Positions 853-62,500 of a DNA stretch of 64,000 bases are shown one piece after another. Location of the stretch: positions 789,349 through 853,348 of the forward strand of contig CAJINV010000009.1 in assembly GCA_905178155.1 (NCBI GenBank), given 5' to 3'. How positions within the stretch are numbered: position 1 is the stretch's first letter; every line of letters begins with the position of its first letter. Position numbers and translations under genes: made by a program. This DNA comes from Amoebophrya sp. A120 (lineage: Eukaryota > Protista > Dinoflagellata). The notes below the pieces were generated by a model. It was not told the DNA's origin, made no database searches, and saw only the letters and a program-made list of their open reading frames with translations.

Positions 853-2404
853 ATGAACGAGCAGGTTCACCGTGCCGCGATCATCTGGCCTCAGACGAAG
901 AAGCAAGTGAGGAAGTTTTCTGATATCGCCATCGCACCCGCCATATGCATTGCAAAAGTATCGTAATCGTACTAGTATAAATCGCATGACAGGTTTTCAA
1001 GAAGTAGAAAATTGGAATTTGTAATGCAGAGTCAGGTAGAGAACCATTTGTCATGCATACCTGCAATTCATACGTTGCGAGTGCGATACTTTTGCAATGG
1101 ATACGCCAACGTGGAGGACGACGAGGAGTCGGAGAGGTCGTACTCTCAGAAGCTTCTGGGGTTCAAAGATCCGGATCTCCTCTGCGGGATCACATCGGAG
1201 AGGCAAGCGCAGGCGGACTTTTGTTTCTGGTTCGACCGTGAGATGTACACAGAAAAAGAACAAACCTCGGACGAACAAATCTTAAACCAATGGGAGGACG
1301 AAGAAGATGAAGACAGGAAAAAAAAAAGAAAAGCACATGACAAGAAGAACGGAAACAAGAAAGTGAAAGGAAGAAAAGCGGAGAAAAGAAACGGGAAAAC
1401 CAAAGTTGCGCAAAACCCTGTGGATGACACACCGGACCGGAACTACGTCGCGGAAGCCATGGCTGCTCGGTTGCCGTGGTCCGAGAAGAAGAAAGCGAGC
1501 GTGCCGCACGATATGATCATCCACGGGCCCGTGTTGCTCGTCTTCAGTCCAACGATGCAAACCAATGGGATGGGACAGTTTGTTGACGATATGGTTGACG
1601 ACGGCGAGTTCGGTTATCTGGGGATCGAAGAAGCCTGGAACAAAGGGCAACCAGTTGAGCAGCTGCGGAATGAGCAAAAACCAAAAACCACTTCTCCGCG
1701 TGACAGAAGGTGGAGCTTGCGCCAGCTGCAGCAGCGGGTTGCGTACTTTCACATGACCTTCGCTTCGGAAGACCAGTTATCCTGTTGCGCAAAAGCATCC
1801 CACTAAGAGCAATTAGCAATGATGAACTCTGTATTATACAGATTAGCCTAGCAGTAGCATGACAGCAGATGCAATGATTTGTATAGATCTATAAAAATTC
1901 TGCTTTAATACTTTTAGCAAGAAGGCAAAAATTCAATATTGCTATGCAGCATATCTTCTGCATCAAGTACGATACTTCTGCAATTCATACCTGTACGAGG
2001 AGAACCGGGATCCCAGAACGCGCCACCTCACCGAAGAAGAAGTAAAACTGATAACGGATATGGACAGCTGGGACACAATACCCCCCAATCTTATGGAAAA
2101 ACTTAAAATGAAGCTGGAACAAAACCTCACCCCTGAGGGCATGGAAGAGCTTGAGAAGGAAAAGAAGAAGGCACAAAAGCAAAAAGACGGAAAGAACAGT
2201 GGTGGCACAGGCCCAGTGAACAAGGCGGAGCGAAGTACTATGGATAATTCTAGGTCCGTTGATAGTCCTCCGGGGCCTAGTAAAATGTTTCGTGGGGATC
2301 GTGTGAAGACGAAGCACGCAAAGACCAAGAAAAGATCTTCGAAGAATGTGAAAGCAAGAGGTGGTGGTGGCGGCGCTACTGCGAACATGAAAAGTGAGCT
2401 GTGA
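853..2404 (+). CDS. Hypothetical protein, 3 exons (853-943, 1109-1777, 1995-2404), split by two non-canonical hairpin introns
   Basis: ORFs 664..966, 1012..1806 and 2060..2404 join in frame once elements 944-1103 and 1778-1989 (each plus a 5-bp repeat) are removed: ...IAIAPA|NVEDDEES... and ...FASEDQ|YEENRDPRTRHL...; Lys-rich tracts; start codon uncertain; no family recognised. Confidence 0.65.
944..1103. mobile_element. Introner-like non-canonical intron, family A (160 bp)
   Basis: TIR TATGCATTGCAAAAGTATCG ... CGATACTTTTGCAATGGATA (20 bp, 1 mismatch); direct repeat CGCCA at 939-943 and 1104-1108; removing 165 nt keeps the frame and removes the stop at 964-966. Confidence 0.9.
1778..1989. 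mobile_element. Degenerate introner-like intron, family A-related (212 bp)
   Basis: Begins TATCC..GCAAAAGCATC, ends GATACTTCTGCAATTCATA; imperfect repeat CCAGT/CCTGT; internal segment TTTTAGCAAGAAGGCAAAAATTCAATATTGCTATGCAG resembles family A interiors; removing 217 nt links ORF 1012 to the frame of ORF 2060. Confidence 0.65.
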
Positions 2405-3204
2405 CATTCAGTTTTTAACTACAGCCGTCTCATCCAAAAGGAGTTCAGCGAACGAAGCGGCAAGACATCTTTCAACCACTTGATGTGCGAGTCTCCCTTT
2501 CGGTCCTCTGCGTGTCTGCGTGATCGTGTTCAACAGCTCTTGCAGCTTTTTCCAAAATAGAAGATTTCGATACGCTGCTTCTGGTGCATTTTCTGATTTT
2601 TCTAATAAAGGGTAGCGAAGAAAGAAATTGCCGAGAGAACATTTTTAAAAAATGGATACTGAAAAGAAGCATGAAGAAACTTGAGATGCAGGCGTAAGTG
2701 GAAGTGCTTGTTGCAACATTCAATTTATGTAGAATCAGTAGAAGGGAGCTCGGCTGAGCGTGGTACTGGAATTTTGACGACAAAGGGGCGCGTAACGTCC
2801 TGCCATCATGATGGACCTTGTGAGCGGGGTGAGGGCCGCGGGGCGGGGGCTCTCGCTGTACTTATTAATTTGAATCACGCAGGCATCAGCGTCATCGTCG
2901 TCATCCTCTAAGGCAGCTTCTGTCTCTTTTCAGCAGACATCGCAACTTGTTGTACCTAAGCGAGTCGTAAATGCTCAATAAAGTCGAAGATGTTTCCACA
3001 TTCGCGATTCTTCCGACGTCCTGGCGATTGTGTTGGTCCACTTCGGCCAGGATTGGTAGTGCACTTTGATGTTCTGAAGAGCTACGCTAGTGGTGTGACG
3101 TAATTCAACTTGCAGGAGAAGGAGAACTCGGAAGAACAGGATCACGGCATAGGTGGTTCCGTGGCAACAACCCACCCGGAACTGTTCACCGCTGGTGGAT
3201 CAGC

Positions 3205-6200
3205 ATGCCGGCATTGGTGGAAAGGGGCCGAAACATGCACGCGTCGCACCGCGGCGGCTCCGATCATCCCGATCTTGATCTAGTGGACTACAACATGACG
3301 GTGACGAATTACCATTCAGATCACCAACATCCAGAGGAAAATGCCGAACGGCGTCACCAGGATTTGGATCATGTTGACGGTCAACATGAAGAGCTGATGG
3401 CCACCTTTGACGCCACCGAGGACAGGACACAGTTCAGGCGCAACAAGAAGAATTCGAGACGGGCAACGAGATCACCCTCTGGACCCAAGAAGAGGAATAC
3501 AATTTTGAAGATTTCTGACTGCAATATCTTCGAGGGCGACTTCATTGCGTTTTGCCACGTGTTTGCCGCAGGGGTTACGCTTGTCATGGCCCGCGTTACC
3601 CCCGGAGCTTGTTTGCTGGAGGAACTCGGCTTCACGCTGGCGGAGCTGGCCCATTGCGATGCTCTGTTTTGGTCCGGCTTTGTCATTATCAAATGTAAAA
3701 ATGTCTGGGTCTGGAAGAATGCAAGATTTGTGATGCAGGTTTTCCATGACCCATGAGGTCTGGAATGCGAGACCCAGCATGACAGATTTTTTGAGGTCTC
3801 TATCAATATCATGCCTTTCCTGCATGAGAAACTCCCTCTCAACTTGGTCAAAAGCGGACAGCTTTTGGTACTCACGCAACACAGATTTTTGTATTTTTGT
3901 ATCCTTCGGATTTAGCATGACAAGTTCCAATCTTCCAGACCCAGACATTTTTACATTTGATAGTCATCACGCAGATCGTCCTCTTCGCGCCCTTCTTGGA
4001 CCTATTTCGCCCGAACAGCGACGAGAATGACCGAGATGAGGAGGAATTCTTCAGCATAAAGCGAGATTTTGGCAGCGGCTCTTCCGAGAGGACAAAAAAT
4101 GGTTCGCAGCAGGAAGTGAATAGCCACGGGTATCACGATGTTGAAGACGAAGAAGAAGCACAGGAAGAAGATGAAAAGCAAATTTTTACTCGCCCTCCGT
4201 ACAAATACAACGACCACTTCGCTGCAGCTGGAACTTCTGTTTCCCAGCATCATCAAGGAGGCTCAGGCTTCGTCGACGACGCTGATCGAATGCAGCTTCT
4301 CGACCGAGACTGCTATAATGCCTCTGCACTCGTTCGAGGACCCGCGCGTTCGGAAAAACTTTCTTCCGAGAGCAGCAGAGGACGAGGCGAGAAAAGTGCA
4401 AGGGCAAGCGAAGTCGACAGGTTGATCCCTGTTGCGACCGCCGCGTATTCACCGTGTGGTCTGACTAAGACCCACATGACCCTTTCCGCGAGGAACTCGA
4501 AATTGGTGACGTCCAAGACGGCAATAACGCCAGGCGGCCTGCCGGACGGTCATCCCGAGAAAGGCGGCCCGGAAGTTGTGCGACTTCAGGGTCATCAGAG
4601 GCAGCGAAGCGCCGCTCCTCGCTCGACGGCGCAGCACATCGGGAAGGCCATTTTTCGCAGATTTGTGCCGACCAGCTTCCGCAACTGGCTACAGCTGCCG
4701 ACAGCCATGCCAACAAGTTTGCAGGTGGTCTACAAGAACGAGAAGAAAAAGAAAAATCAGAGTACCACGAGGACCAGTCAAGTGGGCGAAAGTGATTCTC
4801 CTGGTGGAACAAGTCATGATCTGCAATTATTCGGCGGGATTCGGAAAAAGCAAATCGACGTTTTTCAAAAACCTAAGCAAGCGCTCCTGGCCGCGCTGCT
4901 GCTCTGCGCGATCGTGCAGTTCTCGTTTCCCTCCTTGGCCACCTCGAAGGCCCTGATGCTCCTGCAAACAATCCACGGGGTGGCGCAGGGCCTCGCCTGT
5001 GCTGCTTGTGCGCAGACCTTCCGCAAAGTGGTGTACTCACCTAACCAATCCACGCTGCTTCTCTGGGTCGCCTGGGGCACGACCAGCTTGGGACTCGGAA
5101 AATTTTGCGGACCGCTGGTCACGGAGTGCAGTCTGGCGCTCGCGGCGCGGGCCCCGCCGGTTTCCACGATCATGCTGGAACTACAAAAAGTCAACCGCTT
5201 CGCCGGCATGAGCACGAGTGGCAGCACGCCTTCTTCCGGTTTGGAGCATGCTGCGGGAACTGCAGCGCCAAGGTGGAGCAGTGCTAGTGGAACAAGATCT
5301 TTGTCGCGAACTGTTTCCTATTTGCAACTCTTCGGTGATGACGACGACGCTACTGTCAAAGAGAAGGAAGCGAGCCGATTTTTTTTCGGCCTCAGCCCGT
5401 CACTTCCTGCCATCCACGACGACGGAAGTTCGTATATTCCCTTGTGGCCGCTGGTGCAGCCGCCGTCCACAAGAACAAAGTCCCAGCAGGGCAAGGGAAT
5501 GGAGGCAGAGGATAAAAAACAGCAAATCACCAAAAAGAAAAACCAGAAGACCAATGATCGCGAGGAAGCAGAGCTGGAAAAAACGTCTGCCAATAAACTT
5601 TCATTTCTGCAAGACGATGAAAAAGCTGCTGCGCCTCCTCCTGGTGAAAGTGAAGAATCTACAACATCGCGAGGAGCTGAAAGACCAAAAAAACAGGTGA
5701 AGCAAGGAGCAGGAAGCAGACAGAGGACTTCGAGTTTTAGTTCCGAAGCCCAACACAGAAAGAAAATGAAAAGAACGGCACATCGTCATGAAGATGTTGA
5801 TGAGATCAATAGGTCCGCACTATTCAGTGTTTCATCGAAAGATCATCTTCTGACAGCAGCGTCTACCGACGGTCCACAGGCACAGCCCGAGTCCGAGACG
5901 GCGGTCATCCTCGGCGAACTCGGAAAGCGAAAGAATGAAAGAACACAGAAAATAGACGGAAAGGAGGAGAAGGAAGAAAAAGAATCGGAGGAACAAGGGG
6001 CTGCTGCTCGTCCAGAACCAGAGAACAAAAAGAAGAAAATCGATTTCTTTGATAGTCGAATTTGGGCCGACTGGGACTGGTCCCGGGTGCTGTTTCACGA
6101 TCCACACGTCAAAATGGACGATGAGGAGCCACACACGGCGTCGTCCGGCGGAGATGCAGCGGATCGCGACAGCAACAAAGCACCGAAAGACCCACGGCAG

Positions 6201-9200: not shown

Positions 9201-10676
9201 GAACATTCTGAACTCTAGTCATACGGCTTGCCTGTCTGCTCCGCACTACGCAATCGACACGCCGGGAGTCGCCAGTCGGGATGTCAGAGACCAAGCCGAG
9301 GATCTTCTGACCAGGAGCGGTGCCACGGCCTGGTATTTGACGCAGAGTGGTAGTATTTTCTGAAAATTTTTCAACCATCCCCATCGAATTGGAATTTGTC
9401 AGGCAAAAGATGGAGTAAAGTTGGCTTTGTTTTGTCATGCAATGCTGGTTCCGCATCCTCGCCCACCCGACCCCCTGGGGAGAAGAGCCATTGCCTGTTG
9501 CGCTGGGTGCGAGTGCGGAGGGAGGTGTCCACTACATCATGATGACGGTGATGCAAAAAGTGGATGTGGATGGTTAAAAATTTTCAGAGCATAAATAGCG
9601 GCAGCAGTTCAGCAGCGTCAACCGCTCGCGGAGGTAGTCATCTGTTGCAGCTGACGACAGGCGCATCACTTTACCACCCGCAGAGGGAAGTTGCAGGAAG
9701 ACGCGGGAGTGGCTTGCTCGAGCACGAGCAGCGGCTGCGGCAGGATGATCTCCTACATCAAGCTGATGAAGTCGTAGATATGGAGGACATGCAACTTGTC
9801 CAAGTTGCTCGACATAACTTTCTCGGCGAAGGACAGGAAATGTTGGCCAGTAGCACGAATGCGCCTACCGCGGCGTCGCAAGAGACAACCTCGACGTCCA
9901 CCTCCCGCAACATCCTCTCCGCCACTGGAATCAACCTCCTCGGACCGTTTTTCAGCTCGGTTTGCATTTTATGCGTCGCTATGTTGGAGGCGGCCTACGT
10001 GCTGTGGCTCACGTTTAGCTTTCCACGCGGCGTCGGAACCATGTTTCTCGCATTGCACGGGCTTGGCGACGCCTCGAGCGGTCCCCTGATCGCACTGCTC
10101 ATCGTCTCCAGTACGACGGCAGACGCAGAGACAAGGAGAGTAAGAACTTCATCCGGTGAAAGAACAACGACAACGAGGACCTCCTCTCATGCAGGAGCCC
10201 TTCTATCCAACGGAATGATTGACAACCGTGCCACGACAGCCGCCAACAGCTTCAACTCCCGAACAGTCAGTCGCGTTGTGACGACCCGATTCGACCTGCG
10301 CTTGGCCGTGTGGGTGTTGTGCTTCGGATTAGCTTGCATCTTCGTGTTCCTCCTCCGCATAGAACAGAACCCAATTGACACGTATTGTCAGCTGCTCACC
10401 GCAGTTTCGGTCTATTTCCTCGGCGTTCTGATGGCGAGCATTCGGGCGCTGTTCGGCGGCTTTATCCTGCTCACCTGCAACGTGGAAACCGCAAGACTGC
10501 AAATCCCGTTTTTTTGGTGCAGCGGCCACTTTCTGTGCAACTTCATCACCCCCGTTATTGGGGTCGGTTTGCCGTTGAGCCAATTTTTAGCCTACTTCGC
10601 GATTGTGTTGTCTTGCGTCGTCACCCTCGTACTCAGCGGCGAAAAGACCGTTCGAGGATTCGTCAGGTCACCGTGA
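3205..10676 (+). CDS. Very large multi-pass membrane protein, probably MFS-like transporter with giant hydrophilic insertions; exons 3205-3686, 3968-8264, 8431-9353, 9599-10676
   Basis: Four ORFs join in frame via element 3687-3962, a GT-AG intron 8265-8430 and element 9354-9593. Hydrophobic helices with MFS-like character (LFWSGFV|ITQIVLFAPFLD; LLQTIHGVAQGLACAAC; SLGLGKFCGPLV; FHAPFVSHGIIFLIQAFLVF; several C-terminal helices). Confidence 0.6.
3687..3962. mobile_element. Introner-like non-canonical intron, family C (276 bp)
   Basis: Perfect 32-bp TIR TATCAAATGTAAAAATGTCTGGGTCTGGAAGA; direct repeat GTCAT at 3682-3686 and 3963-3967; removing 281 nt fuses ORF 3205 to ORF 3957 in frame. Confidence 0.93.
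8265..8430 (+). other. Canonical GT-AG intron (166 nt)
   Basis: AAG|GTACTT ... TTGCAG|GTT; AT-rich; its length restores the frame between ORFs 3957 and 8425. Confidence 0.75.
9354..9593. mobile_element. Introner-like non-canonical intron, family B-related (240 bp)
   Basis: Imperfect TIR TATTTTCTGAAAATTTTTCAACCATCC ... GGATGGTTAAAAATTTTCAGAGCATA; degenerate repeat GGTAG/AATAG; contains TTTGTCATGCA; removing 245 nt joins ORF 8425 to ORF 9564 (QSG|SGSSSA). Confidence 0.78.
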
Positions 10677-11651
10677 GGAGCAGGTACAACAAGTCGTGAG
10701 TGTTACTGTTCGTTTATAACGACGACCTTGAAACCTCCTGCCCAACACGAGCAGGACGGCAGTGAGAAAGTGAAAACAAAATAATTCTGAAATTAAGAAC
10801 CTGAGATAGATCTTCAATATCGTGAAAGTCGGAAATATGCATGTCTATGAAGTTTCAGAATCCGATAAATTTACTAAAAATATGCACAATTTAGAGAAGT
10901 CAGTATAAATTCAACAGCCTTTTTTGTTCAAAAACAAATAGATAATGCCTCTGTATATTCCACGGATGTAGGATGAAATTTTTCTTACTTTTTTGTTTCT
11001 TTTTGATTTTGTAGCTGCACGAGTGTAGTGAAAATGTTGCTTAACGACGTAAAGAAAAAGACCGACGTAAAGAAATTTACCAGTGGCTTTTCCACCAGAA
11101 TTAACCATGTAAAATGTAACGGAGCAGCCTGACTCAAAGTCAGAGCGGCCGCAGCAGGAGTGCCGTCGAAGTTCTATTCATAAAAATTAGCAATGACATC
11201 AATGTCAATGTTGTTGCTGCAGCACAACAATTACAATATCCTCGCGACGATAAGCCGGGCCCTGTTCGTTGATAGGCCAAAAAGGCCTTCTCGCTTGAAT
11301 TTCTGTACAGAGCAGCCGCAAAAGTTCTGCAGTTCGTTATTGATGTCCCTCGGCGATTCATTTTGTGGCGGTGGTGTTGGCTGCGTTGTTTTGTAAAAAG
11401 ATTTGGCTTTGAGTGTCGTGCGCGATAGATACAGAGAGGAAGACACAAGGATGAAGCGACGATTAGGATTACGAGAGGGCAATGAACGCATTCTGCCGTC
11501 GTGCATTTTCTTCGTGGTTGCACGTTTTCGACAGTAAACCACCTCTGAGAGTCCAAGAAACCACAAAGCGCATCAAAGTTCTTGAAAGTTGTATGAGTAA
11601 AGTTTTAAGTTCTTGTGCGCTCGTGCATCAACATCGTACAAGAAAAAAATA

Positions 11652-14600
11652 ATGTCCGGTCGTCCCCCGTTTTCATTGGCGGGAGACAACGGCTCGCCCA
11701 GTGAGCTTTACGGTGGCGGAAAGAAACACTGGCTCCGCCGCCTCCGACTGGACTACCGGCCTTGTGCAGCCCCGTCTTTTGCTGCAGCCGTGGATGATCG
11801 ATATCGAGATGACGAACAAAGCGACAGCCCACTCGGCCCGGAGTTCTGCCTGCGGGATCGGACCGCGCCCGGCTGCAAGCAGGAGGAGGGGCTCCGGTCC
11901 ATTTGGGCCAGCGCGGATCGCAAGGCACGTGAGTGCTTGAATGCTTTGTATCTGGTGAACATGAAGACTACCAGTGGAGGCACTACTAAAATTGGAAGTA
12001 GTAGTAACAAGCATACCTTGGGCGCCGACCAACCGCCACCGTACCCGGCCCGGCTGGCGATACGAGTGTACCCCGAGTTCTTTTTCACCGTGAAAAGCTA
12101 CCAAGCTGTGCTGACCGAACGCGAACGCCAGGAGAATGCGTTTGTGTTCGGCGATGGTGTGCACGGGCAGGGGTACTACCTGATCCGTGAACGAGAGGAA
12201 GAGGCAGCGAGTTCTGAATTTGGGATAAGTGGAAGTGCAATTACCGGCACCACGGTTGCATCCTCAAGCTCGTCCCATCCTCATCCTTTTGCAAAAGTCT
12301 TGAAGTCGTCCGCCTCCGCGGGATCATCTTCATCTTCGAGGGGCGCCGCTGCAGCAAGACGCGCGTCCATGATTTTGCGTCCCGCGTTCCGCGGAGGCTT
12401 CATCGGTCCGCGCGAGGGGTTTTTCTTCGGTAGGACCACCCCAGAACAGGGAAGGATACTGGGGTACTACCCGCAGCGGCTGCCAGAGGAAGAGATCGAC
12501 TTCGAGCTCGCCCCGAAGTTTACTGGTCCGCGACCCGGCTTTTTCTTCGGAACGCGCCCGATCCGCGACGGCGGCCGAGAGCATGCAGCTACAGTGCTCT
12601 ATTTGGGTTACCACCGGGACAAAGCGAAGGCCTTCGCGGCGTCCTCCAGTGAGGCTCTTCATCTTTCCGTTGCGCAGCAGCAGCTCGAGCAGCAGCAGCC
12701 ATCGGCGGCCGCACTGTCGTCGAAAATATTGAGGACGCTCGCGGCCCAAAACAAATCAAAGTCACTGCAAGCGAAGGAATTGTCGTCGAATGGTGCAACA
12801 GCGTCCCGAGCGCATGCTGCAGCTGGAACGCCGGGGGCAAATGCGAATACGGATATTTTTGCCGATTCGACGAGGACCCCGAGAGACGACAGGGGCGACG
12901 CGAGTGCAAGTGCGCAATACAGTGGCGACCAAACCCAAGCTCCTTCCGGTCGGGTAGGGACGAATTTTTCAATCACTTTTTCGTCCACTTCCGCGGGGGC
13001 CGTGATGCGACCCTTTGACCCTGGCGCGGTCACCGGGGCCCGAATTTTGGACATCGTGCTGGAACTTGCAAAGTATGACGCATCTGCCCGTGAATTCCTC
13101 AAATTGCTCCTGCACCGTCCTTCCACAATCGATGCCTGGAAGTCATGCACGGGTCTGTCCTACAGCGTTCCGAGTCTTACTGATTGTTCAAAAGACGACG
13201 CCGGAAAGCAAAAATTGATGCTGAACAAGGAGCACGGCGCCAGCAGCGGCTCCAGCACCGGTGCCGCGGCCGCAAGCAAAGACAAAGAGCCACTCGTGGG
13301 CCGAGCGTTGAGCTCGGTGCTGAAACGTCCCCGGTTTGATGCTGCGTGGTTGCAGGGTGGGCACAAGAGTTATTCGTTGCGTCAATTTGTGTTTGACCGT
13401 GCCCTACTGGCCTTCATGTACCAAATATCCAGCATGGCGTGGCGACCGTTCTTCAACGAGCATCGTGTGCTTGCCGCGATGCCGAATGCGCGGCTGTTGA
13501 ACAACGCTTTCCGGTTGAAAGGAGAGGGGAAGACCATCGAGAAGCAGATTCAGGTTCTGCAGTCCGTCTCCAAACCAGCCTGGGCGCAGCGCCGTGTCGG
13601 GTCGCCGCCTGGGCGCGCCTCGTCAGCCTGGATGGGCGGCCACGCAGCTTACCAAGCGGAAGGCGATGTGTATCACTGGGCGCGCACTAGCAACAACTTC
13701 ATGCAGAAGAGCCTGCTTTACAAGGTAGTCCTTCGGAAAGATACACACTACACCTGTTGCAGTTTCATAATTCTAGCACGCTGGATTTGATTGACATGGC
13801 TCTTGTTCAGTTGTATGTGACATCAACAAACATGGAAACAATTGCAAACACGAAGACAAAACGCTGAGTGTTTTAGTTTTCCAGTTCGGTGGTCGGGTTC
13901 CAATGACTAAGAATAAAAAGCAGGAAGGTGCAGTTGTGGTTGATCAGCTTTTCTTCTCATTGAAAAACGTACTAACACAGGCGACCAACAAATCCCTGGC
14001 AGATGACGACCTCGGCATCAACAGCCACTCTGTGTTGGCCTTCGGGAGCGTACAACCGAACGTGAACCAGTATGAAGGTGGGCGCTACAACAATGCCCAC
14101 ACAACGACGTATGGTCCAAACGCAAACGCCAGCGGTGCACCACTGTCCGCACGCTGGGGCACGCACAGTGGCATGTTTACGCCCAGGGAAGCATCTTTGC
14201 AGATGACCCCGCGATCTGCGCGCTTGCAATTCGATGGTGGTAGCAGTGGGACGCCTTTTTGCGTTGAAAACGATGCCCTCGGTGGCAATGACACCATCCT
14301 CACCGCTCCTGGAGCTTCTGCTGACACGTGTTCGCTGGAATTGGATCTTTCCTCTTGCTTTCGCGCGATGCATGATCGCCTGATGTGGCAACCTGTAGCG
14401 GTGAGCTCCCAGTATCGGTTTGTGCCGCAGAACCGGAAATCCATCCTGAAACACGAACAACAAATGAACGCGGACACGGTGCTGGCGTCGTGGGTGAACA
14501 GAGGAAACAATCCGCGGGACAAAGGCAAACTTTGGGCCGCGAGAGAGTTTGATCCGAGCTATTCAAGTCGTACCGCCGGCGGGGGCAAGACCAAGAGCGA

Positions 14601-17600
14601 GAACCACATTGTGGACATGAAGACAATGCCCGCCGACTGGAGCAAGAAGTTTCCCTTACGTCATGACCAGATGGCGGCCGTGACCTGGATGCGCGAGCGC
14701 GAGTTGCGAGCGAAGCCTTTCCGGGTTGAGTACGAGCGGATGCTGGAGGGCAATTTCTTCCTGCAGGATTTGGCCAACTGGGATTTGGAGCTCCGAATGC
14801 AGGCGGACTACTCTGCCCGGGGCGGCGTTTTGGCAAACCCGGTGGGTGCCGGAAAGACCGCGACCGTGCTGGGTTTGATTGCGCTGGACAAAGAAGCTCC
14901 GTTACCGTGTGACGAGCCCGGGGCAATGCCGCAGAAGCCACCGACCCGATTCCCAAAAGGGTTCGAGCACGACCGCAAACCAAAGCAGCCGGTCGCAACG
15001 GCGGCGGACAGCGACGAAGAGGAAACCTCGTCTTCCCCCGCAGCAGCTGCGCCCCTTTTGGAAGCAGGCTCGTCTACTAAGAATAAGAAACTGAACAAAC
15101 GAAGCCGCGGACGAGGAGCGAAATCAACGTCTGAAGACGCACATCAAACTCGAGCAGCGAAATTTTCTCGCCAGACACCTTCTCGCAAGACACCTTCACC
15201 TTCCAAAAAATTGCCGTCTGCCGTTGTCGCGAAGGCAAAAGCCTGCGGCAGCGTCAAGAAGAGTAACAGCAAAGTGAAACCAACGGCGAAGGGAAAAGCC
15301 ACTGTCGCGAAGAGCAAGGCAGCTGGAAATAAGGCGAAAGCGTCGCCTCCGCCGTCAGGAGGTCGAGCAGCGCTTCAACATATTAACGACGTCGTGCCTC
15401 CTTCTACTCAAACCGCCGCGGCGAGCGCATCATCGTCTTCTGGTCCGCCCAACGCGAGAGATGGAGGCAAAAGCAAGAAGAAAAAAGTCGGGTCCTCTTC
15501 GGACGCAACTTCGAAATCCGTTGCCGACCAGGTGCGAAAAGTCTTCAGCGACCAGGAGGCACAGGTTTTGGACCACGACTGCTTTTTTCCGAGCAAGGCG
15601 ACTCTTGTTTTTGTCCCCGGCCACCTGGTGGACCAGTGGGAGCGGGAAATTGCTAAGTTCATGCCCGATCACAAGCTCAATATCCTCGCGCTGCGCAACG
15701 TCAACCCCCTCAAGCTGCTCACCGTCGGCGACATCCAGCGGGCAGACATCGTGATTTGCAGCTACCGCATCCTCTTCTCAGAGAACTACCAGCGCCTGCG
15801 GTTGAAAGAGCTGCTGTTTGGCTTCGGTGCGCATTTTTTGAAAAAACCAGGCAACGCAGCTGCAACAACTTCTGCCACGACGAAAACAGAAAGTGAAAAA
15901 GAACCGAAGAAAGTTGGCAGTGAAGAGGACGAGGTGCTGGAGGCTGCGTCACAACGGGAAGGTTTCCGTTCTCCAGCTGCAGCGATGACCTCGGCCGCAA
16001 CGCTGCCGACCGAAGCGAACAAGGAAACAAATATTGACGGGGGTGACACAAACACCATGTTATCTGCGTCTGGGCCGACACAGACTCAGACGCTGAATCT
16101 GAACTATAGACCGACGAGCAGAAGTGGTGCACGACCTCAGGCGATAACGATTCTGAAGACAGAAAACCAGCAGCAGCAGGGAGGCAAGAGCAGTAGTTCC
16201 TCGGCAGCAGGAGGAGAAAATCAACAACCCAGCTCGTTCGCAATGGCGCACAGGCCTGATCTTTCCCTCTGGATTCAGGATCGCAAGTACGGGATTCGCA
16301 CCAAGAAACGCAAGGTTGACTCTATCCTCTCCGTAATGGACCACGGAGCGCGTGCGGTAGTGGATGCCACGGGCGTGGTTCCGAATGAGAAGAACAAGTA
16401 CAACAAGAAAAGATTTGTCGAGGAGGAGCAAAATAAACCGCTGTCCACCGTGTTGCAGGGACCCGCAAAGGAGCGCTTCAAATCCTGGCACTTCTCAGAC
16501 CGCGAGCGAACGATGCTCCATTCGCTGCTGAAGGAGCAGGTGCGAGAGTTTCGCAAGAACCCGACGCATTTCCAGCACTGGCACGACAGTCAACGCGATG
16601 GTGTCAAGTACTTTCGATCGATCCACCGGCAAGCCTTGCTTGTCGCCGCGGCGGTTGAGACGGCGTCCCGCGCAAACAAAAGTTTAAGCGAGAGGGCCGA
16701 GCAGCGGCGCGCCGCATTGTTGGAGAAGCTAGCGCAAGAATTGTCGGACGATGGCGACGAAAGACCACCGCAAGCAGAGAGCGACGGCAGCGAGCCAGAT
16801 TCACCTCTTGCACAAGAGATACAAAACGCGCAAGGAAAAGCGAAAAAGAAAAAGCCGCGGCCACGAGGGCGACCGCGGCTGAAGCCGAAGCCCATCGAGG
16901 CTGCTCCGAAAGCGAAAGTACTAGCTCAGAAACCCAAAGTTCTCGTTGCCTCAGTCCTACTGAAGAAGCCGAAGCGGAAAGAAACCCGGCTTGTTCCGCC
17001 TGGCGGTGGCAAAAACAAAAAGCTGCTGACCAAAAAGAAGGAGAACAAAGCAAGTCCGGGTAAAAGCAAACAAAAACGCCACACACCGGGTAGGAAGAGG
17101 CCTGGGAAAGAGATGTCAGAGCTGCTCGCGAGTCCTGACAAGGTCGCCGAGCCGCGCGAAGACTCGCTCCAAGACACGGAGTACTTCACGAATTGCGTGC
17201 GCGAGTTTCGGAGAGCCCGGCTGCTTGGCACGGAAGAGGAGTGCGCCACCGCGCTCGAGATCCACGAAGCCCAGGACCTTCGCTTCCCGCTACTGGAGAT
17301 GTTTCTCTGGCGTCGTGTGGTGTTTGACGAGATGCACGAGCTGGAATCGTTCAATCCGAAAGAAGTGGACATTCTGCTGCGGTTCCGCGCCCTGTTCAAG
17401 TGGGGACTGACCGGCTCCCCCGCGGCCTTCTCGGTTCGATCCGTCAACGCCATGGCCTCGCTCTTGTCCATCGATCTGCTCGGCGTGTCAAAGGAGGAAT
17501 CCGGTCTGTTGGACCAGGTCCACCAGTACGCCGAGGCGTGCGCTGTGACGCAGGGCGGGGACCGGGGCGGGGCCTTGAGCGAGCACCTAGCCACCTATCT

Positions 17601-20600: not shown

Positions 20601-23600
20601 GCGGACGACGTCGAGTTCCCCCTCGCTGCGGGTAACTACAAGACATCGAACGAAGACCGCACACAGCTGCTACCGGACCCGGTATTGAGAAAGTTGCGTG
20701 ACCTGGAGAAACGCGCAGACGAAAATGCGGCAGCTTCCGGGTCGTCCGCAGAGGAGCAAGAAAGCGGCCAAGAACCTTTGGACTTACCGGGCATCGTAAC
20801 CAGGCTGCTGCGCCTGTGGAACGAAGAAGTTCCCGTGCTCGCATCCCGGTCCATATTCCACGATGCTTTCAAAGAGAACCGACCTGGGGACGGGGATCGG
20901 CTGGACGCGCTGGAAAACCTGGGAACCCTCTCCCGCCGGAAAAAGGAGGAGCAGTTGCAGATGCACGAGCGCGACCTGTCGCAGCTCATTTGTGCACAAC
21001 TGGACCGGTTGCTGACCGCCTATCAGCACTACAACTTCTTCCGCAAGACGCTGGACGTGTACGCCGACTCCACCGCCAGCTCCGCAGCCTCGTCGGTCGG
21101 CGGAGATGTTGGGGACCACCTGAGTGGTGTTGGCAGTGCGAAGAAGAACCTCGAGGCTTTTCTTTCTGATGGCAACACCTCTGCGCGAAGCTCCTCTTCA
21201 GGATCGTCAGGGTCCGCCGGAAACAACATCTCCAGTGATCAGAAAGTACTAGCACTAGACCAGCAGAGCATGAACAACAAACTCGCTGAGGATGCAATAG
21301 AAGAGGTGGTCTCGTCCGCTAAAAACGAGAAGCTGCAGCTCTCGTCGACCACCTTTCCGCAGGCCGATGCGGCTGCCAGTTTCACAACGAGAGTTGATGC
21401 GGCCGCAACAGGCGAAAATAATGCGGTCGTCGCCACAGCTAATGCCGCGATTGCAGTGCCAGCGCAGCTCCAGCCGAGTGGTAATATCACAACTTCGCAT
21501 GGCATCAAGAACCCGTCCAGGGCGGACCAGCGCTACTGCGCAATTTGCACGGAATACCACGACGTGTCCGAGCTGGGAATCACTCCGTGCGCGCACGTTT
21601 TCTGCGTAGTTTGTCTGAACGCGATGGTGGAGAACCAGTATGCATTGCAAAAGTATGGTACTAGTATAAATTGCATTACAAATTTTGGCAAGAAGAGAAG
21701 TCAAATTTGTAATGCTGTTTTACCTTAGGAAGAAGATTTGTCATGCATATTTGCAATTAGTACGAGTGCGATACTTTTGCACAGGATAACCAGCGGAAGT
21801 GCGCGATTTGCCGGCAGCCCTTGCACGAGAAGGACATTTTGTCGCTCTCTTCGGAGCTGCATGCCTGGAAGACGGAGGTGGTGCAGCAAGAAGAGCAGGC
21901 TACCATGGCGACGCTGGGCCAAGTAGGCAAGCGATTCCGCTACCAGAAACTCACGCGCGGCAGTCTGCTTTCGCCCGCCGTGAATGAAGGAGGTGCTGTG
22001 TTCGATCAGCCGGAAGCTCTTCTAGAGCCTCCGCGAAAGATATCAAAAAAGATGACCATGAAAGATATCAAGAAGAGCGTGGAGCAACAAGACCACTCGC
22101 CCACCCACGGCCGCTTTTACCCAGCCAAAAGACAGAAGCAGAGTCCTGACGGAAAAAAGAGTCAGAAAAATTTTGCTGGAGGAGCGCAGAACAGGAAAAA
22201 TGCAACCACCACTACGTCCGATGAGGAGCTTGACCCGCAATGCTCCGCGGTGACAATATTGGAGGACGTCGCAGGGCCGATCGACTTCGTCCGGACGTTG
22301 ATCCCCAAAGGACAAATCGCTTTTCCAGTAGCAGCGAATGTTGGCAGCACGACCGCCAACGACTCATCTACTTCGTCCGCGTCGTCTTCGTCCTCCTCGG
22401 CAGGAGCTGGCAATGGAAAAAATGAAGCCGCCGTGAGCAGCACAACTTCAACTGTATGGAAGAGTCAGAATCGAAATCAACAAAATCGAAATAATTTGTG
22501 ATGCATAAAATCGATACCAGTTGGAGCCTCAGTTTCCAAGTAGTGCATGACAAATTTCGGGAGAACCAAAATCCAGTCCGTCATGCTGCTTGGGAAACGG
22601 AGACTGCTCCTGTCATGCTACCCGGGAAGCACATCGCCTTCCCCTAAACAGGCTTGCAAGCGGTTTCACTTGCCTGCTCCCCAACACAGGCTGCGCGTGC
22701 CCTACATTTTATGCATGACAAACTATTTCGATTTTGTCCATTTCGATCCTGACGCATCCATAAACTGAGAAAGAGTTGTATCCCCTCGTAGACATAGCGG
22801 CGACGTACGGGTCGAAGATGCAGAAGCTAGCGGAGCTACTGACGAAAATCAAGGGCGACGACAAAAACGCAAAGATCCTGGTCTACTCCCAGTGGGACAA
22901 GGGAAACAAGTTGGCCTTCGAAGCCCTGCAGAACCTCCAACACTTGAGCTGCCACCTGTTCAACGGCGGCGTTGCCGCGAAAGCACGCCTCCTTCGCCGG
23001 TTCGCGGACGCCGAGCCGGGAAAGGCATCATTAGACGTGCTGTTGATTATGGGACTCTCAAATGTTACATTCTCAACTGTTACACGATTTGTCATGCAAA
23101 ATTTCCGTCAATAGCTACATGATCAAGCTGCTTCGCATGACAAATTCCCGAAGAGCTGCCAGGCTGAAAATCTACTGTGCCAAATCTGTCATGCAAGATG
23201 CGCTAGGTCTCCCGTCCCCTTTCACGTTTGCCATTCCTGCATCACAAATTCATGCAACAGGAGTTGAGAATGTAACGTTTGAGAACACCATATTGATCCC
23301 CCTGGACTTCGGGGCCAGCGGTTTGAACATGGTGCTCGCACAGCACATCGTCTTCGTGCACCCCTTATCAACTGCAAAAATGTCTGGGTCTGGAAAGTTG
23401 GAACTTGTGATGCAAATTTTGGAATCTAGAAAACTCTGTATTGCATGACCAGCAAGAGGAGTCCAGTTTCTGCTATGCGGGGAGGCCATTTGTCATGCGG
23501 AATAGGCATCAAGAAGCACTCAGAAAATCTGTGATGCCAGGGAATACATCACAGACGTCACGGGCCATGTGAAATCTGCATGACAAGTTCGCATCCTTCC

Positions 23601-23840
23601 AGACCCAGACACTTTTGCATTTGATACCCCTTCAGTTTTCCCTCCGTCGCCCAGACGCGGGCCGCGGAGGCGCAGGCCATCGGCCGGGTGTGCCGGCCGG
23701 GGCAGGCACGCGGAGACATCCACGTGTGGCGACTCTGCACTTTGAACACTGTGGAGGAGGAACTTATCAACGAACGGTGCGGAAATGGCTCCTCGACGGG
23801 TGGGAATGTTTTTCATGAGGAGCAGGCTGCTCCTGCGTGA
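11652..23840 (+). CDS. SNF2-family helicase/ATPase with C3HC4 RING finger (RAD5/RAD16/SHPRH/DNMT5-type architecture); 8 exons: 11652-13724, 13885-18453, 18568-19507, 19753-21638, 21794-22454, 22768-23047, 23298-23365, 23632-23840
   Basis: Motif I RGGVLANPVGAGKT, Ia ATLVFVPGHLVDQW, II RRVVFDEMHE, III KWGLTGSP, RING CAIC..PCAHVFCVVC..NQ|RKCAICRQPL, YGSKMQKL, IV KILVYSQW, V VLL|IPLDFGASGLNM..AQHIVFVHP, VI EAQAIGRVCRPGQ. The model uses two GT-AG introns (13725-13884, 19508-19752) and five hairpin introns; every junction is frame-consistent. Confidence 0.88.
13725..13884 (+). other. Canonical GT-AG intron (160 nt)
   Basis: AAG|GTAGTC ... TTTTCCAG|TTC; joins ORF 11613 to ORF 13903 in frame. Confidence 0.72.
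18454..18562. mobile_element. Introner-like non-canonical intron, family B (109 bp)
   Basis: Imperfect ~30-bp TIR TATCCAAAGAAAAAAACCCATCCACATCCA ... TGGATGTCGATGAGTTTTTTTCTGTGGAAA; direct repeat CGGAC 18449-18453/18563-18567; removing 114 nt gives DNAD|GRDSS and removes an in-frame stop. Confidence 0.88.
19508..19752 (+). other. Canonical GT-AG intron (245 nt)
   Basis: AAAG|GTAGGA ... AATCAG|GCACG; frame-consistent between ORFs 18514 and 19788. Confidence 0.72.
21639..21788. mobile_element. Introner-like non-canonical intron, family A (150 bp), inside the RING finger
   Basis: TIR TATGCATTGCAAAAGTAT ... ATACTTTTGCACAGGATA; direct repeat ACCAG 21634-21638/21789-21793; removing 155 nt supplies the final CxxC of the RING; interior homologous to 944-1103. 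Confidence 0.93.
22455..22762. mobile_element. Introner-like non-canonical intron, family D (308 bp)
   Basis: ~57-bp imperfect TIR starting TATGGAAGAGTCAGAATCGAAATC and ending ...TTTCGATCCTGACGCATCCATA; direct repeat AACTG 22450-22454/22763-22767; removing 313 nt gives TTST|EKELYPLVD in frame. Confidence 0.9.
23048..23292. mobile_element. Introner-like non-canonical intron, family E (245 bp)
   Basis: 31-bp TIR TATGGGACTCTCAAATGTTACATTCTCAACT ... AGTTGAGAATGTAACGTTTGAGAACACCATA (4 mismatches); direct repeat TTGAT 23043-23047/23293-23297; removal restores helicase motif V. Confidence 0.92.
23366..23626. mobile_element. Introner-like non-canonical intron, family C (261 bp), inverted relative to the other two family C copies
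   Basis: TIR TATCAACTGCAAAAATGTCTGGGTCTGGAA ... TTCCAGACCCAGACACTTTTGCATTTGATA; direct repeat CCCCT 23361-23365/23627-23631; removal joins VFVHP to FSFPS..QAIGRVCRPGQ. Confidence 0.93.
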
Positions 23841-24424: not shown

Positions 24425-26779
24425 ATGCAGTCCCTCGAGGTTTATCAACTGTAAAAATGTCTGGGTCTGGAAGATTCTGACACTTGTCATGCACGTTTTG
24501 CATGAGCCACCATGTCTGTGATGCATACCCTAGCGATACAGATTTTTTGAGGGCTTCTTGATGCCTATTCCGCATGGGAAATGCCTTCTCAGCGTAGCAA
24601 AAATTGCATTCCCTTTGCTACTCACGCAATACAGATTTTTTTGGAGTCCAAATGCAGCATCACAAGTTGCATTCTTCCAGACCCAGACATTTTTGCATTT
24701 GATGAGGTTGAGGTCGAGCTCGACGAGTTGGATCTACCGCGGCATGGGGATGAACGGTACGGGGTGGATGACGGTGCTCTATTTCGGCACGAATCGTCCG
24801 AGAGAGTTGTAGTCCCCTCACCGCTTGCCAACCACGGCGCCTCGTCCTCCTGCAGCTCTCGCTACAGCACGATCGAGCTCTTGTGCCAGAACGCCGGTTT
24901 TGACAGCTACTACGCCTTCTTCCGGCGGTTGTTTCTGCATTCTGTGCTCTTTTTCGCAATCGCCATCATCGCCATTCCCTTTCTGGTGATGGACCACCAC
25001 TCGTGCGCAACAACGGGCTACCTGGGGGTCATCAGCCACCTGTTTTTCCTGTTGCTGCTCTACGGATCGATTCTGGAGGAGCTGCGTTGCGCGTGCAGGT
25101 TCTTCGACCCAACGGAAGATGGTGGCAGCAGATCAAGCAGTCCGAGCGGCGGTTCGTTTTCCGGATTTTTCTCCATTTTGTCTACAGCAGTAAGCCCGGG
25201 CGGCGGTGGTTCGGCTTACGATTACTTGGAACAGTTAAAGGAATACACGAAGGACTACGATGAACAGGTTGAAGAAGCCACTGTCAGGAATTTCGGAACT
25301 ACATCTTCAACCACGTTTGTTCGCGGTGGGCCGGCAGCACCTACGTCATCAGCACAAATGCTGGAACAAACCTCGTCTGCGTTTTCGTTTGCAACGTCAA
25401 GCACTAGCCGCTTCGAAAACAAAAGCAAGACATCAAACTCTTCAACTGCCGAACTGGAGATCGACACTAGCACCGGCGCGAACAAAAGCAGCACTGCCTC
25501 CGCTGCAACCAGTTTAGCCACGATGATTGGCAGCGCCACCCGGTGGAAAGAATCACCAAAAGCGGCAGATGTGTTGGAGCACGAACTAAGTGGAGGAGCG
25601 GCAGACGCTAGGAACGCGGCGCCACAAGGAAGCGGAAAAATGACCAAATCTTCAGCTGCGTCCTCAAGAGGCGACGTTGTCGTGGTCGAGTTGCGACCAG
25701 ACCAAGAAAGCGGAGCAGCTGTATCAACTTTTGTTCCTTCGCAGTCGTCGCCCCCACCGAAGAGAACAACGAGCGGCAATCTGTGGACGAGCTTTTCGAA
25801 TGCGGTTTTGCAGCCAATCACCAACACCCTGACCATCACGTTCATTCGGTGTCACTACATCACCCAGTTCTGCAGGACTTGCTGCGATTACTTTTTTTTC
25901 GAGGAGCTGTTGCACTTCTTCAAGAAGAACGAGAACGCGATCCTGGTTTTGAAGCAAATGACGTGGCGATTGGACATGTATTGCGACATTTTGTTCGTGC
26001 TCATCGCCAGAAATTGCGGCTCTTACCTCTGGTGGGCGAGTTTGGCGATTTTCGTCTTCGTGAACTTCTTGCTGCAATTCGTCCTGCAGATTTTGTTCTT
26101 CGCCTGCACCGACTGCGACCAGCAACTGCCAAAGTCGACCGGCTTTTTCTGGCTTGACTTCGTCGTCGTCAATAAGGCGGTCCTGGTGCAGTTGCGCAAG
26201 ACGGAGATCATGGTCGCTCGGCAGGAGAATTTGGGGAGCGATAGCCAACCACAAACGATGCAAATAATCGCTGCGGGAAGTTCAGGTGGAAACGAAATAG
26301 TAGCTCCATTAGGACTTGTGCAATCGTCATCTTCGTCTCCGAGCAGCCTCAGCTTCGTCGATAGTTCCAAGAGCACGAATCTGCTCAGTTGGGTCCAGTA
26401 CGCCATCATGATAGAAAAGTGTTTTCTGTCAGATCTGATTCAGATTTTGATTCAAACAAATTTCCTGCTTGACCTCTCTACCCCAAACAATAGCCTTGTG
26501 TACTGCAGTGTGCTGTTTAGCTTTGTGAACTTTTTGCTGAACTTTTGTCAAATAGTAACGGGGGTGATATGGTTTTACCGGAGGCAAAGAATAGCCGAAG
26601 AACGTATGAAGTCACACCTTGAGGCAATAAAACATGATGAAGAAGCGATAATATCGAGTAGCCTAGGTGGAGCTTCAGCTACAGGAGGGGGATCCAGCAC
26701 TGGTGGCACGCTTACAGCAACCGGGTCCACTTCCGCTTCAACTACTCAAAATGAATTGATACCGACAGGGAGAGTTTGA
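24425..26779 (+). CDS. Multi-pass membrane protein of unknown function; exons 24425-24442, 24710-26779
   Basis: ATG CAG TCC CTC GAG GTT joins ORF 24581 after removal of element 24443-24704 (MQSLEV|EVELDELDLP); several hydrophobic helices; RLDMYCDILF and SDLIQILIQ loosely recall XK-like membrane proteins (weak). Confidence 0.7.
24443..24704. mobile_element. Introner-like intron, family C (262 bp)
   Basis: TIR TATCAACTGTAAAAATGTCTGGGTCTGGAAGA ... TCTTCCAGACCCAGACATTTTTGCATTTGATG; direct repeat AGGTT 24438-24442/24705-24709; the 267-nt removal is in frame and can also be read as GT(24440)-AG(24706). Confidence 0.9.
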
Positions 26780-39545: not shown

Positions 39546-40136
39546 ATGTTGCGACTCGTCCTCGCGTCGCTCATCACGCTCTCCACACAAAGGACCGCTG
39601 TAGCCCTGAAGGAGGTTTCTGCGTCTATTCTGGATGACCTGAAAACTCCGTATCTGGTGGAGTTCTACTCTAAATTTTGCGGTTCCTGCACCGAATTCAT
39701 GCCGACAGTGGAAAAGACGGAGAAGCTCTTGAAGAAAGCAGTGCCAGTAGGAAAAATCAATATCGAGGACAAACCTGGAAGAGAGGTAAGTTATGTTGAA
39801 TAAGACATTGAGCGTGCACAACTTGTACTTTTTCTTTTTGCCCCACCGCATCCTATAGATCCTGGAACTGCAGCACATTGCTTCTCTGACTCTGTGTTTT
39901 TCCGCGATAAGAAGGGCACAAAAACAATTTCATTTTCCATTTCAATCCAGCTTGCGGAGAAGGAGGGCGCGCTGGAAGATGGCTTGCCTTCCCTGCGTTT
40001 GTACTACAAAGACGGCGACACAGTCAGTTTCGAGCGCATTCTCGAGCCAGACACGGTTGACTTCCCCCCCGCGGAAACCCTTGCGAAGAAGGTAAAGGCC
40101 ACTTTGAAGAAAATCGGTAAGAGTGGCGAACTGTAA
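39546..40136 (+). CDS. Secreted/ER thioredoxin (PDI-like single domain), CGSC active site; exons 39546-39785, 39951-40136
   Basis: Signal-peptide-like N-terminus, YLVEFYSKFCGSC, GLPSLRLY cis-Pro loop, C-terminal SGEL (KDEL-like); intron GTAAG...TCCAG 39786-39950 (165 nt). Confidence 0.85.
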
Positions 40137-45984: not shown

Positions 45985-47143
45985 ATTGATAAACAAGCAC
46001 GGCGGCTGTAGTCTACTTCTGTCCTCATATTTCAGAGCTACAAGAATAATTTTAGGCGAATTTCTTATTGTCGGTCGTAAGGCCGTAAACATGTAATTTC
46101 ATATGACACCCGAGATTTTCTTATCTTTTCGCTCTCGAGGCGACACACCAATGTCCTGGCGCAGCCATTCTTTTTCATGCATGTCGCTTCTAGATGAGTC
46201 GATGCATAATTTTGAAGGCAAGACAGCTGACCGCTGCCTACTGTCAACATGTCTGATCATATAGAAGCGCCGTCTTTTTTTGTTTTTCTGCTTCTTGCGC
46301 TTACGTTCCTGCTAAAATCAATGCACATAGCAGGTCGTATGATCTTGTTCTACAACTTCGCACAGTTTTTAGATGTTCAGACGCACCATTTCACTTCACA
46401 TATAGTAGGTACTTATGTGCTTACATCTTTCATCTTTAACTGTGCCTACTAACGCCTGCAAAAAAAAAAAACGAGGACATCGAATTTTCCGTTTTGTGAT
46501 TATCAAAAATCAATCTGGATATTTGCGAACTTTTGTCGGCCGCCTGTTAAAACAAAGCAAAGGCTTAGGTATTTCAGCCAAAGCGAAAACAGAAACCAAA
46601 AGATGCGCACCCGCATCATCCTTTTTTTGTCGCCCCACCGGCATCAACAAGCCAGCGAGCAAAAGTTTTGTGCTGGTGTTCGTGTTCGCTGCAGTCTCTA
46701 CATTTATTTTTACTCCTCGCACAGTGTCAGCGCATACGCATAGTGGTCAGACGCAAATTCTTTTGGTCATCGGCTCGAGCTAATGTTTTTTCGTCACATC
46801 CTGCATAGTTCGTCGTGTTGTTTTTTTCGTTAAGTACACTTCGTTGGTTTTTTTATGTCGGAAGCGGAGGGTTTTTTCATTTAAATTTTGTTCTCCTGCA
46901 GCTGTGTATTCAATGCAGAGCAGCGCCGGTTTTTCATCACGACGATCGCAGTAGGTTGTTTGCAGGGAATCAAAAAACCGGGCGGCAGTAGACTCTGTTC
47001 GACGTGCTTTCGATTGTTTTTTGGCTCTCTCCTAGTTCGCGTGAGGACCATCGAGAAACCACATAATTCGTTTTTCGTAGTAGTCGTCGTTCCCGAAATA
47101 TTAGTTCAAATTCTGCTAGAGCGTAATCATCAACATCAGCAGC

Positions 47144-48438
47144 ATGGGGTGTTGCGCTAGTGCGGACTTCCGCGCAGCAGATCATGGCGCGAACAAAGCG
47201 GAGGATGCAGTTGTTGGCGGAGCTCATAAGGAAAACGAGAACAACGCTGATGTGAACGTCCTCGGAGCACCACTACTCCTCACCGATGTCGACGTCCAAG
47301 TGAACAATAAAGCAGGTGGAGGCGCCAAGGCCAATGGCACAACGAGTAATTTTGAGGACCCCGAAGCGCTTTTCTTTCAGTCTCTCGACGAACACACCAA
47401 CCAGGTTCTGCTGGACTCGCCCAAAAATGAACACCACAACGAAGATGTTGAGCAAGAGCAAACCGAAATGAAGAATGAAGAAAGCAGCAACAGCGTCCTG
47501 CTCGGGTCGCCAGTCGAAGGTAGCACGGCAAAAGGCTCTGCCGAAGCCGATGACAGCGCAAATACGATCATGAGAGACGACTCGGCACCGGTCCGCACCG
47601 ATAGCATGACGATCGTCCCGAACAAGACCAAGAACAGCCCGTCCGGTGCCGGTGAAGCCACAGCATCTACTTTCGCGACGCCCTCGAATCTGTTGGACCG
47701 GAAGAAAGTCGACGTGGATGCTGCTCTGCAGGTCTACCGGAAGTATGGAAGCGTCAGGTGGGAAATCGGCGACATGGACCTAACGTGCAACGCATTTGTT
47801 TTTTTAATTGCCAGCCTTAGTTAGCGTGTTTTCTTGGCTCCTCGTCAAATTTAGTGTTGCATGCGATGGACATGAAATTGGCCTCATTCTGAGCTTGCTA
47901 CGATTCTTCACTTGACGAGTTGCTGAGAAGCGTGGCACGAAGTTCTTTTATGACGGCTTCGGAAAAATTTGAATTTTCCTCGCGCCGCTTAGCAAGCAGA
48001 AATGGTGGCCGCCAGCAGCAGCACAACTCGTGTCGATTTTATAAGGCACAACAGAGGCCATTACAACTTATCAAGTCGCTTCGACGATTTTCCACTTAGT
48101 ACCACTTTCATAGAAAGGAGCTGGCGAGTAGTCCGGATCGCACTAGTAGCGTCCACGATGCAGAGGACTTTGCAGAAAACGTGAAGCCAAAGACCCTCGG
48201 TCTGACCGACACGCGGCCCAAGGGGGGTGTCCGGAAGGCCTTAGCCACCGAAAAACCGTCGAACTGGGTATCCAGGAAAAAACACCCATCCCCATCCATT
48301 TTTTGTATGACAAATAGTGGATTTCATGCATGTCTTGCATGACAAATTGGCTGGGGATGGGTGTTTTTTCCTGGATACTGGGTCCCCTTCGTCTCCAGCA
48401 TCCACCTCCGGCCGATTATGACATCGGAGAAAAGATAA
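47144..48438 (+). CDS. Hypothetical protein with N-terminal MGCC myristoylation/palmitoylation-type motif; exons 47144-47757, 48114-48268, 48383-48438
   Basis: MGCCAS start; GT-AG intron 47758-48113; element 48269-48377 carries an in-frame TGA and its removal gives KPSNW|VPFVSSIHLRPIMTSEKR*. Confidence 0.7.
48269..48377. mobile_element. Introner-like non-canonical intron, family B (109 bp), inverted relative to 18454-18562
   Basis: Perfect 26-bp TIR TATCCAGGAAAAAACACCCATCCCCA; direct repeat CTGGG 48264-48268/48378-48382; same length as the 18454 copy. Confidence 0.92.
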
Positions 48439-62420: not shown

Positions 62421-62500
62421 TAGTTGGAGTAGATGTTTGGAGTAGGTTATATTTGGAGTAGATAGTTGGAGTAGATGTTACGGTTATATTTGGAGTAGAA
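62421..62500. repeat. TTGGAGTAG minisatellite
   Basis: Five copies of TTGGAGTAG with short variable spacers. Confidence 0.8.

Follow-up and report, generated by a model that had tools for sequence, protein, structure and literature searches.

Miniature elements of the window and the motif they share

The stretch analyzed here, 64,000 nt of the dinoflagellate Amoebophrya sp. A120 (contig CAJINV010000009.1, positions 789,349 to 853,348; hereafter the window), carries 11 miniature elements with a summed length of 2,332 bases, the remainder of the window amounting to 61,668 bases. An initial annotation, made from the letters alone, had noticed that element families with dissimilar ends (A to E) share an internal motif, TTTGT(C/G)ATGCA, and had proposed that one trans-acting factor binds it. 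Our analysis shows that the motif is genuine, that it is general to these elements and that it is constrained; the elements themselves match in their features a known kind, the introners of A120-type Amoebophrya.

Elements were called blind to the motif, from TAT..ATA ends together with a 5-nt direct repeat. This motif-blind search gave 31 permissive candidates in the window, 10 of which were clean; the remaining ones were discarded because their inverted repeats were weak and their direct repeats imperfect. The 11th element, the decayed A2d, was delimited by eye and later backed by an RNA join. In the following list no strand is assigned to the elements themselves, TSD stands for target-site duplication, and the sign after each motif site gives its strand.

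A1, 944..1103, 160 nt, TSD CGCCA; sites 946 (-, overlapping the tip), 983 (-), 1018 (+), 1047 (+)
A2d, decayed A-type, 1778..1989, 212 nt, imperfect TSD CCAGT/CCTGT; no end-proximal site, internal site 1856 (-)
B1, 3687..3962, 276 nt, TSD GTCAT; sites 3727 (+), 3759 (+), 3776 (-), 3821 (-), 3875 (-), 3914 (-)
C0, decayed C-type, 9354..9593, 240 nt, imperfect TSD GGTAG/AATAG; sites 9395 (+, weak), 9431 (+)
C1, 18454..18562, 109 nt, TSD CGGAC; same-direction sites 18485 (+) and 18517 (+), 32 nt apart
A3, 21639..21788, 150 nt, TSD ACCAG; sites 21641 (-), 21672 (-), 21706 (+), 21737 (+)
D1, 22455..22762, 308 nt, TSD AACTG; sites 22495 (+), 22544 (-), 22609 (+), 22712 (-), 40 nt from either tip
E1, 23048..23292, 245 nt, TSD TTGAT; sites 23088 (+), 23134 (-), 23185 (+), 23238 (-)
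B2, 23366..23626, 261 nt, TSD CCCCT; sites 23404 (+), 23435 (+), 23489 (+), 23528 (+), 23577 (-)
B3, 24443..24704, 262 nt, TSD AGGTT; sites 24483 (+), 24515 (+), 24571 (-), 24625 (-), 24656 (-)
C2, 48269..48377, 109 nt, TSD CTGGG, orientation opposite to C1; sites 48336 (-) and, weak, 48304 (-)

Read inward, the end anatomy comprises the TAT-N7-AAA tip, then at about positions 15–28 a block specific to the family, then a first motif at about 31, 41 or 52 nt, with more copies often following after another 31–33 nt. The tip of the A-type elements (946 and 21641) is itself a reversed motif copy of 14 bits, lying 31 nt ahead of the next copy in A3; possibly, TAT-N7-AAA tips are a relaxed form of the motif site. 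Five elements from five families lie in one long gene at about 11650–23840, which, judged by its translation and motifs, resembles an SNF2/RING helicase gene; A3 splits its RING-like finger.

The published A120-type introners share the inverted repeat of TAT, seven variable nucleotides and AAA, the direct repeats at the borders, and the removal at non-GT-AG borders (PMC7789003, PMC12130899). The family lengths found here, near 109, 150, 210, 235, 260, 280, 305 and 320 nt, are also lengths in the published introner table. Unlike the published descriptions, the duplication is resolved here as 5 nt, and the published text and readable supplements describe ends and repeats only, with no internal motif, phasing or spacing. 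The motif had no match in 12 of the 14 supplementary files of PMC12130899, nor was it found as an internal motif of these elements in the literature covered, which leaves out most subscription journals and, for PMC7789003, comprises parts of the text and its one supplement apart from figures S19–S25.

Within the window, exact TTTGT(C/G)ATGCA occurs on the forward strand at 1047, 3727, 9431, 18485, 18517, 21737, 22495 and 23088, and on the reverse strand at 22544, 22712, 23238 and 48336, so that all 12 matches fall within elements and none in the 61,668 bases outside. With up to one mismatch there are 24 matches within elements and 6 outside, one of which (59858) falls in an apparent GT-AG intron; when the elements were dinucleotide-shuffled 100 times, exact matches averaged 0.01 and one-mismatch matches 0.35 (maxima 1 and 2). 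Matches of at least 14 bits to the matrix described below lie inside elements in 30 of 33 cases, and the two canonical introns bounded by RNA joins are free of sites, scoring at best 3.2 and -2.3 bits against a threshold of 9. Eleven of the 12 coordinates given in the initial annotation are right to within 1 nt (those at 23489 and 24484 being one-mismatch variants), and 23078 should read 23088. The motif is indeed carried by all five families, with the qualification that the decayed copy A2d has no match within two mismatches and a single internal matrix site.

Enrichment, conservation and phasing in separate contigs

For an independent set, loci were retrieved with a 20-nt family-B end pattern that does not contain the motif, which returned at least 151 stretches; the 74 loci named among the matches listed are all on JACKZZ01 contigs. 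The 145 loci used add up to about 583 kb when only unique sequence is counted; they seem to derive from a single assembly, perhaps of the same species as the window, and the 25 longest matches between loci and window are all of element length. The caller found 373 elements in the loci and made 3 false calls in shuffled loci. Together with the window's 10, these form 36 clusters; after 8 elements longer than 360 nt were dropped, 365 remained, in 13 families of three or more copies and 14 singletons. Summed depth in run X1 reached up to 10^5 over elements as opposed to about 45 elsewhere, a value that is not a copy number.

The enrichment seen in the window recurs in the loci: the exact motif occurs 159 times in 87,994 element bases and 29 times in 469,395 bases of masked background (1.81 vs. 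0.062 per kb, 29-fold). The matrix learned from the loci elements reads YYTGT(C/A/G)(A/T)TGC(A), looser than the form first proposed. A site lies 25–60 nt inward at 628 of the 730 ends of the 365 elements; it should be noted that family B contributes 163 of these elements and that the same elements served to train the matrix. A 5-nt flanking repeat is perfect in 206 of 341 terminal inverted repeat pairs; no other length between 2 and 10 nt exceeds 28 pairs, and 6 nt has none. An A at tip positions 11–14 (0.73–0.84) emerged unprompted, while TAT itself was required by the caller. In viral contigs, the family-B-end and A-end patterns had no match, and a two-site pattern gave 5 stretches in 3 distinct contexts, about the number expected by chance, with no element-like ends in the flanks listed. 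A single GTDB match, with no motif behind it, was also taken as chance. At L012:1641-1751, a 111-nt TAT..ATA element without an end-proximal matrix site is nested within a D-type element; it is possibly a member of a motif-poor class.

The motif core matches its consensus better than the other inner positions do in all 10 families tested, with p<0.001 in 9. Identity to the consensus is about 0.84–0.96 in the core and 0.71–0.83 alongside, and one free position inside the motif falls to 0.71. With the motif masked, alignments stay at the level of shuffles (z up to 2.2) for 43 of 45 family pairs, the related pairs being families 3–6 and 4–5. Neither of the outcomes named at the outset as refuting the proposal, a lack of enrichment or a single diverged family with no excess conservation at the motif, was obtained. 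The view that the motif survives without function from a single common ancestor is largely refuted already, and we consider it very improbable: the shared tip consensus, the spacing modules and the two alignable pairs point to common descent, yet three to six copies per element persist while their flanks have become unalignable, and the core stands out in all 10 families tested against its surroundings, with a free position inside the motif itself.

Rare deviations in BLAST-gathered copies of families 1–8 amount to 44/2093 (2.1%) in the end-proximal core and 24/1248 (1.9%) in TAT, as against 678/9906 (6.8%) in inner sequence and 5.1% in the family-specific block; the core columns were picked from the same data, which flatters these figures somewhat. 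This block, at consensus positions 15–28, is conserved within families and unlike between them, and in 14 of 20 consensus ends it contains a short direct repeat (5 of 5 letters) at 5–7 nt spacing; it is possibly a second, family-specific recognition site.

Measured from the ends, as the initial annotation had suggested, the first inward sites cluster at 30–32, 38–42 and 50–54 nt, with a best period of 10.5 nt (phasing Monte Carlo p=0.0005, based on 10 family modes hand-merged for relatedness). Almost no site occurs before about 30 nt, save for a reversed look-alike that overlaps the tip in some families. Family B illustrates the gaps between the classes, with 42 ends having their first site at 31, 214 at 38–41 and only 3 at 32–36. 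Sites in the same direction are spaced most often, or jointly most often, by 31–33 nt in 10 of 13 families, this spacing being absent from the top spacings of families 8 and 9, and spacing modules recur between families. A strict end-pairing rule of the 12/23 kind was rejected, as symmetric and asymmetric pairs are both present.

Removal of the elements from putative RNA

Joints were taken among those listed for contigs of runs X3 to X6, which we guess to be RNA. In these contigs, the element plus 5 nt is exactly skipped for 9 of the 11 window elements. A1 is removed by joining 938 to 1104, and A2d, despite its lack of an end-proximal site, by joining 1775 to 1993 with the loss of 217 nt (both X6 record 21). 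The joints 3681–3963 of B1 and 9350–9596 of C0 are found in X3, X4 and X6 and not in X2; C1 is removed between 18448 and 18563 in X3 and X6, and A3 between 21632 and 21788 in X6 record 16. For D1, E1 and B2, removal of the element plus 5 nt follows from length arithmetic, with exact sums of 1009 nt in X3 (A3 included) and 347 nt in X6. Removal of B3 is suggested by X6 record 17, which starts matching at 24704. C0 is still present in continuous contigs of runs X1 and X2, and A2d in those of X2.

At 9 of the 11 window sites, one frame is free of stops over ±150 nt once the element and a single copy of the repeat are taken out; each of the remaining two has a best frame that passes the junction and meets one stop further away. 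In the loci, the flanks are in phase at 55 of 61 scorable sites, and an overly permissive control gave stop-free frames at 206 of 302 sites for element +5 nt, as opposed to 156 for +6 and 147 for +4. For A2d and C0 (1773–1994 and 9349–9598 with their duplications), the joined RNA carries the variant letters of the upstream duplication copy; the cut therefore lies at or after the third duplication base in A2d and the second in C0. Imperfect duplications can thus locate a splice point that is otherwise ambiguous. Ten raw RNA reads from another study (run X9, 24443–24476) contain a B-type end with different flanks and run into the motif.

Readings of the motif and related systems

The best reading, with about an even chance in our judgment, is that the motif, repeated at fixed and roughly helix-phased distances, is the DNA binding site of one shared transposase that would mobilize all 13 or more introner families. 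The common binding site for one factor that had been proposed at the outset is thereby partly supported, with DNA now favored over RNA; the search for the protein in the window and the loci came up empty. Several transposase subunits would load on the motif arrays, pair both element ends and insert the element with a 5-nt stagger and no clear target preference; selection on the motif would act mainly during copying, and excision from RNA would take place separately, through recognition of the TAT..ATA ends and a terminal hairpin. Arrayed ends are a feature of Mu, Tn7, hAT and CACTA elements. Action at the DNA level is favored because the spacing is helix-like, the elements lie in both gene orientations, and A2d is excised exactly without end sites. 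Family B is inserted 37:37 with respect to gene orientation (strand was called for 177 of 298 elements), and the target sites have no clear sequence preference, RTATAY not being seen.

Alternatively, the motif could be the signal for a non-canonical RNA excision machinery, as a site on single- or double-stranded pre-mRNA whose multiple copies in two directions would keep elements removable in either direction of insertion. We regard this as unlikely. It would agree with the need for the same host machinery to remove all families, with a core as conserved as the TAT tips, with the near-palindromic form of the motif and with U1 small nuclear RNA not having been detected in these genomes (PMC7789003). 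Against it stand the exact excision of A2d and the coding-context elements that lack end sites, at both ends in 3 of 177 and at one or both in 45. Family 3, in which all six consensus sites point one way, nevertheless lies in gene orientations of 9:5, and no difference in site strength was seen between coding-context copies and the rest (p=0.73, a weak test with a mixed second group). In family B the variable base agrees between partner sites in 35 of 124 copies, compared with 57 expected; perfect pairing is not favored, since this agreement is below chance, and four smaller families have no trend. The 10.5-nt phase suits B-form DNA, with A-form RNA, at about 11, not far off. UGCAUG is an RBFOX-type motif, and a reading along these lines was rejected, as it is contained only in the C variant and on one strand.

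A host DNA-binding or DNA-bending protein that occupies the motif and aids family-specific transposases reading the block at 15–28 is rather improbable as well. The two-tier anatomy, a family block beside one universal motif, is what it would lead to, and bending cofactors are typically phase-dependent. Such a site might, however, recur in host noncoding DNA, and no exact match occurs in the 61.7 kb outside the elements; a set of many distinct transposases should also have been less likely to escape notice than a single one, and A120 has none reported. TTTGTCATGCA is letter-identical to part of the OCT4 SORE probe (PMC8119428), a look-alike that would suit a host protein and that we take as coincidence.

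Several observations weigh against the shared transposase. The three distance classes could be traceable to only few ancestral events, outward-facing first sites are spread over 32–50 nt and loosely phased, and no significant shortage of indels is seen between pairs spaced 31–33 nt (81/643 vs. 145/944, p=0.13). In predicted RNA folds, the pairing partner is another site for 64 of the 108 consensus sites, in favor of an RNA signal, although such pairing would be expected from inverted copies anyway. The family block, which differs between families, would also suit family-specific transposases with a separate common factor, and a core more conserved than this block is what host selection after insertion would also give. 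With imperfect duplication as a measure of age (259 young and 78 old copies), the differences were +0.007 for the core (confidence interval -0.003 to 0.016) and +0.010 for inner sequence (confidence interval -0.004 to 0.025), which does not separate the models. No transposase family was found by Pfam in 188 open reading frames (ORFs; 184 of at least 230 amino acids from the loci and 4 from the window), which gave host genes only, and the long elements with the same ends and a transposase ORF to which the motif was expected to lead did not appear in about 0.58 Mb. Farhat et al. (PMC7789003) likewise report no transposase in A120 and argue against a general mobilization by transposases.

Ten long candidates (432–1104 nt) turned out to be nested, adjacent or insertion-bearing short elements, with a longest ORF of 238 amino acids and no Pfam match. 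Among the insertion-bearing cases, L016:505-1608 is a D-type element with an insert of about 800 nt, and L068:11014-11985 a B-type element with one of about 700 nt, directly after a coding stretch for the RNA polymerase II largest subunit. The best named relatives of this Rpb1 are from alveolates (62–64%), and its top match reaches 86%.

Under the shared-transposase reading, the predicted enzyme would be an integrase-like DDE protein near IS3EU/GingerRoot, because of the TA..TA ends and of a published A120 family with such ends and integrase-related ORFs: fam38, of about 810 nt, is described with "5-bp TSD, TA/TA Termini", and its ORFs as related to a putative transposase region of Copia/Gypsy (PMC12130899). 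IS3EU/GingerRoot elements (PMC10045372, PMC6839031, PMC12730594) have TA..TA termini, no strict target sequence and a suspected integrase-like enzyme, and the fungal IS3EU ends TAYGG..CCRTA resemble families D and E here, which start with TATGG. Their duplication, however, is usually 6 nt rather than the 5 found here, and the accessible accounts describe neither a subterminal motif nor excision from RNA. Ginger2/TDD-4 and TDD-5 (PMC2836005) combine a 5-nt duplication in a protist (4–5 nt across Ginger2/TDD) with an integrase-like DDE enzyme, and differ in their TGTNR termini, where the present elements have TAT, and in a preference for RTATAY targets. From this comparison of ends and duplications, the elements are built like nonautonomous partners of an integrase-like transposon, yet depart from each named group in one defining trait.

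Repeated internal sites beside the inverted repeat of a nonautonomous element, as seen here, are also found in the miniature inverted-repeat transposable element Emigrant, whose subterminal repeats are bound by Lemi1 proteins (PMC1636448). There the sites serve one element–enzyme pair and binding has been shown, whereas here 13 or more unalignable, RNA-removed families are concerned and binding is inferred. The nonconventional introns of Euglena (PMC12501133) are similarly abundant, non-GT-AG and paired at their ends; their code does not reach beyond about 10 nt from the borders, in contrast to a repeated motif at least 30 nt inside.

How Amoebophrya-type introners spread and are removed from RNA was stated as open in PMC7789003, which treated them as many separate families; a conserved and phased internal site that recurs in families that cannot be aligned points to a single machinery. 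A wider proposal, which we hold to be doubtful, is that the TAT-type introns, published as up to about 2,000 families, constitute one transposon system with 5-nt duplications, TA..TA ends and a helix-phased array of 9–11-nt sites, in which one element-encoded integrase-like protein would read the site on DNA and the same site may recruit an RNA-removal machinery without U1 or GT-AG signals. The motif can be used as a pull-down probe, as a signature for an autonomous element and as a detector of decayed copies.

Elsewhere in the window, positions 52023–52588 hold a 566-nt palindrome (216-nt arms, 91%) with 37-nt tandem units, apparently noncoding, which is without the motif and is not a TAT element. 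The single ORF scanned in the region 60600–64000 had no Pfam match; this region comprises an AT-rich block of 26–39% GC (60600–62700) followed, at 63100–64000, by sequence of 65–75% GC with local repeats.

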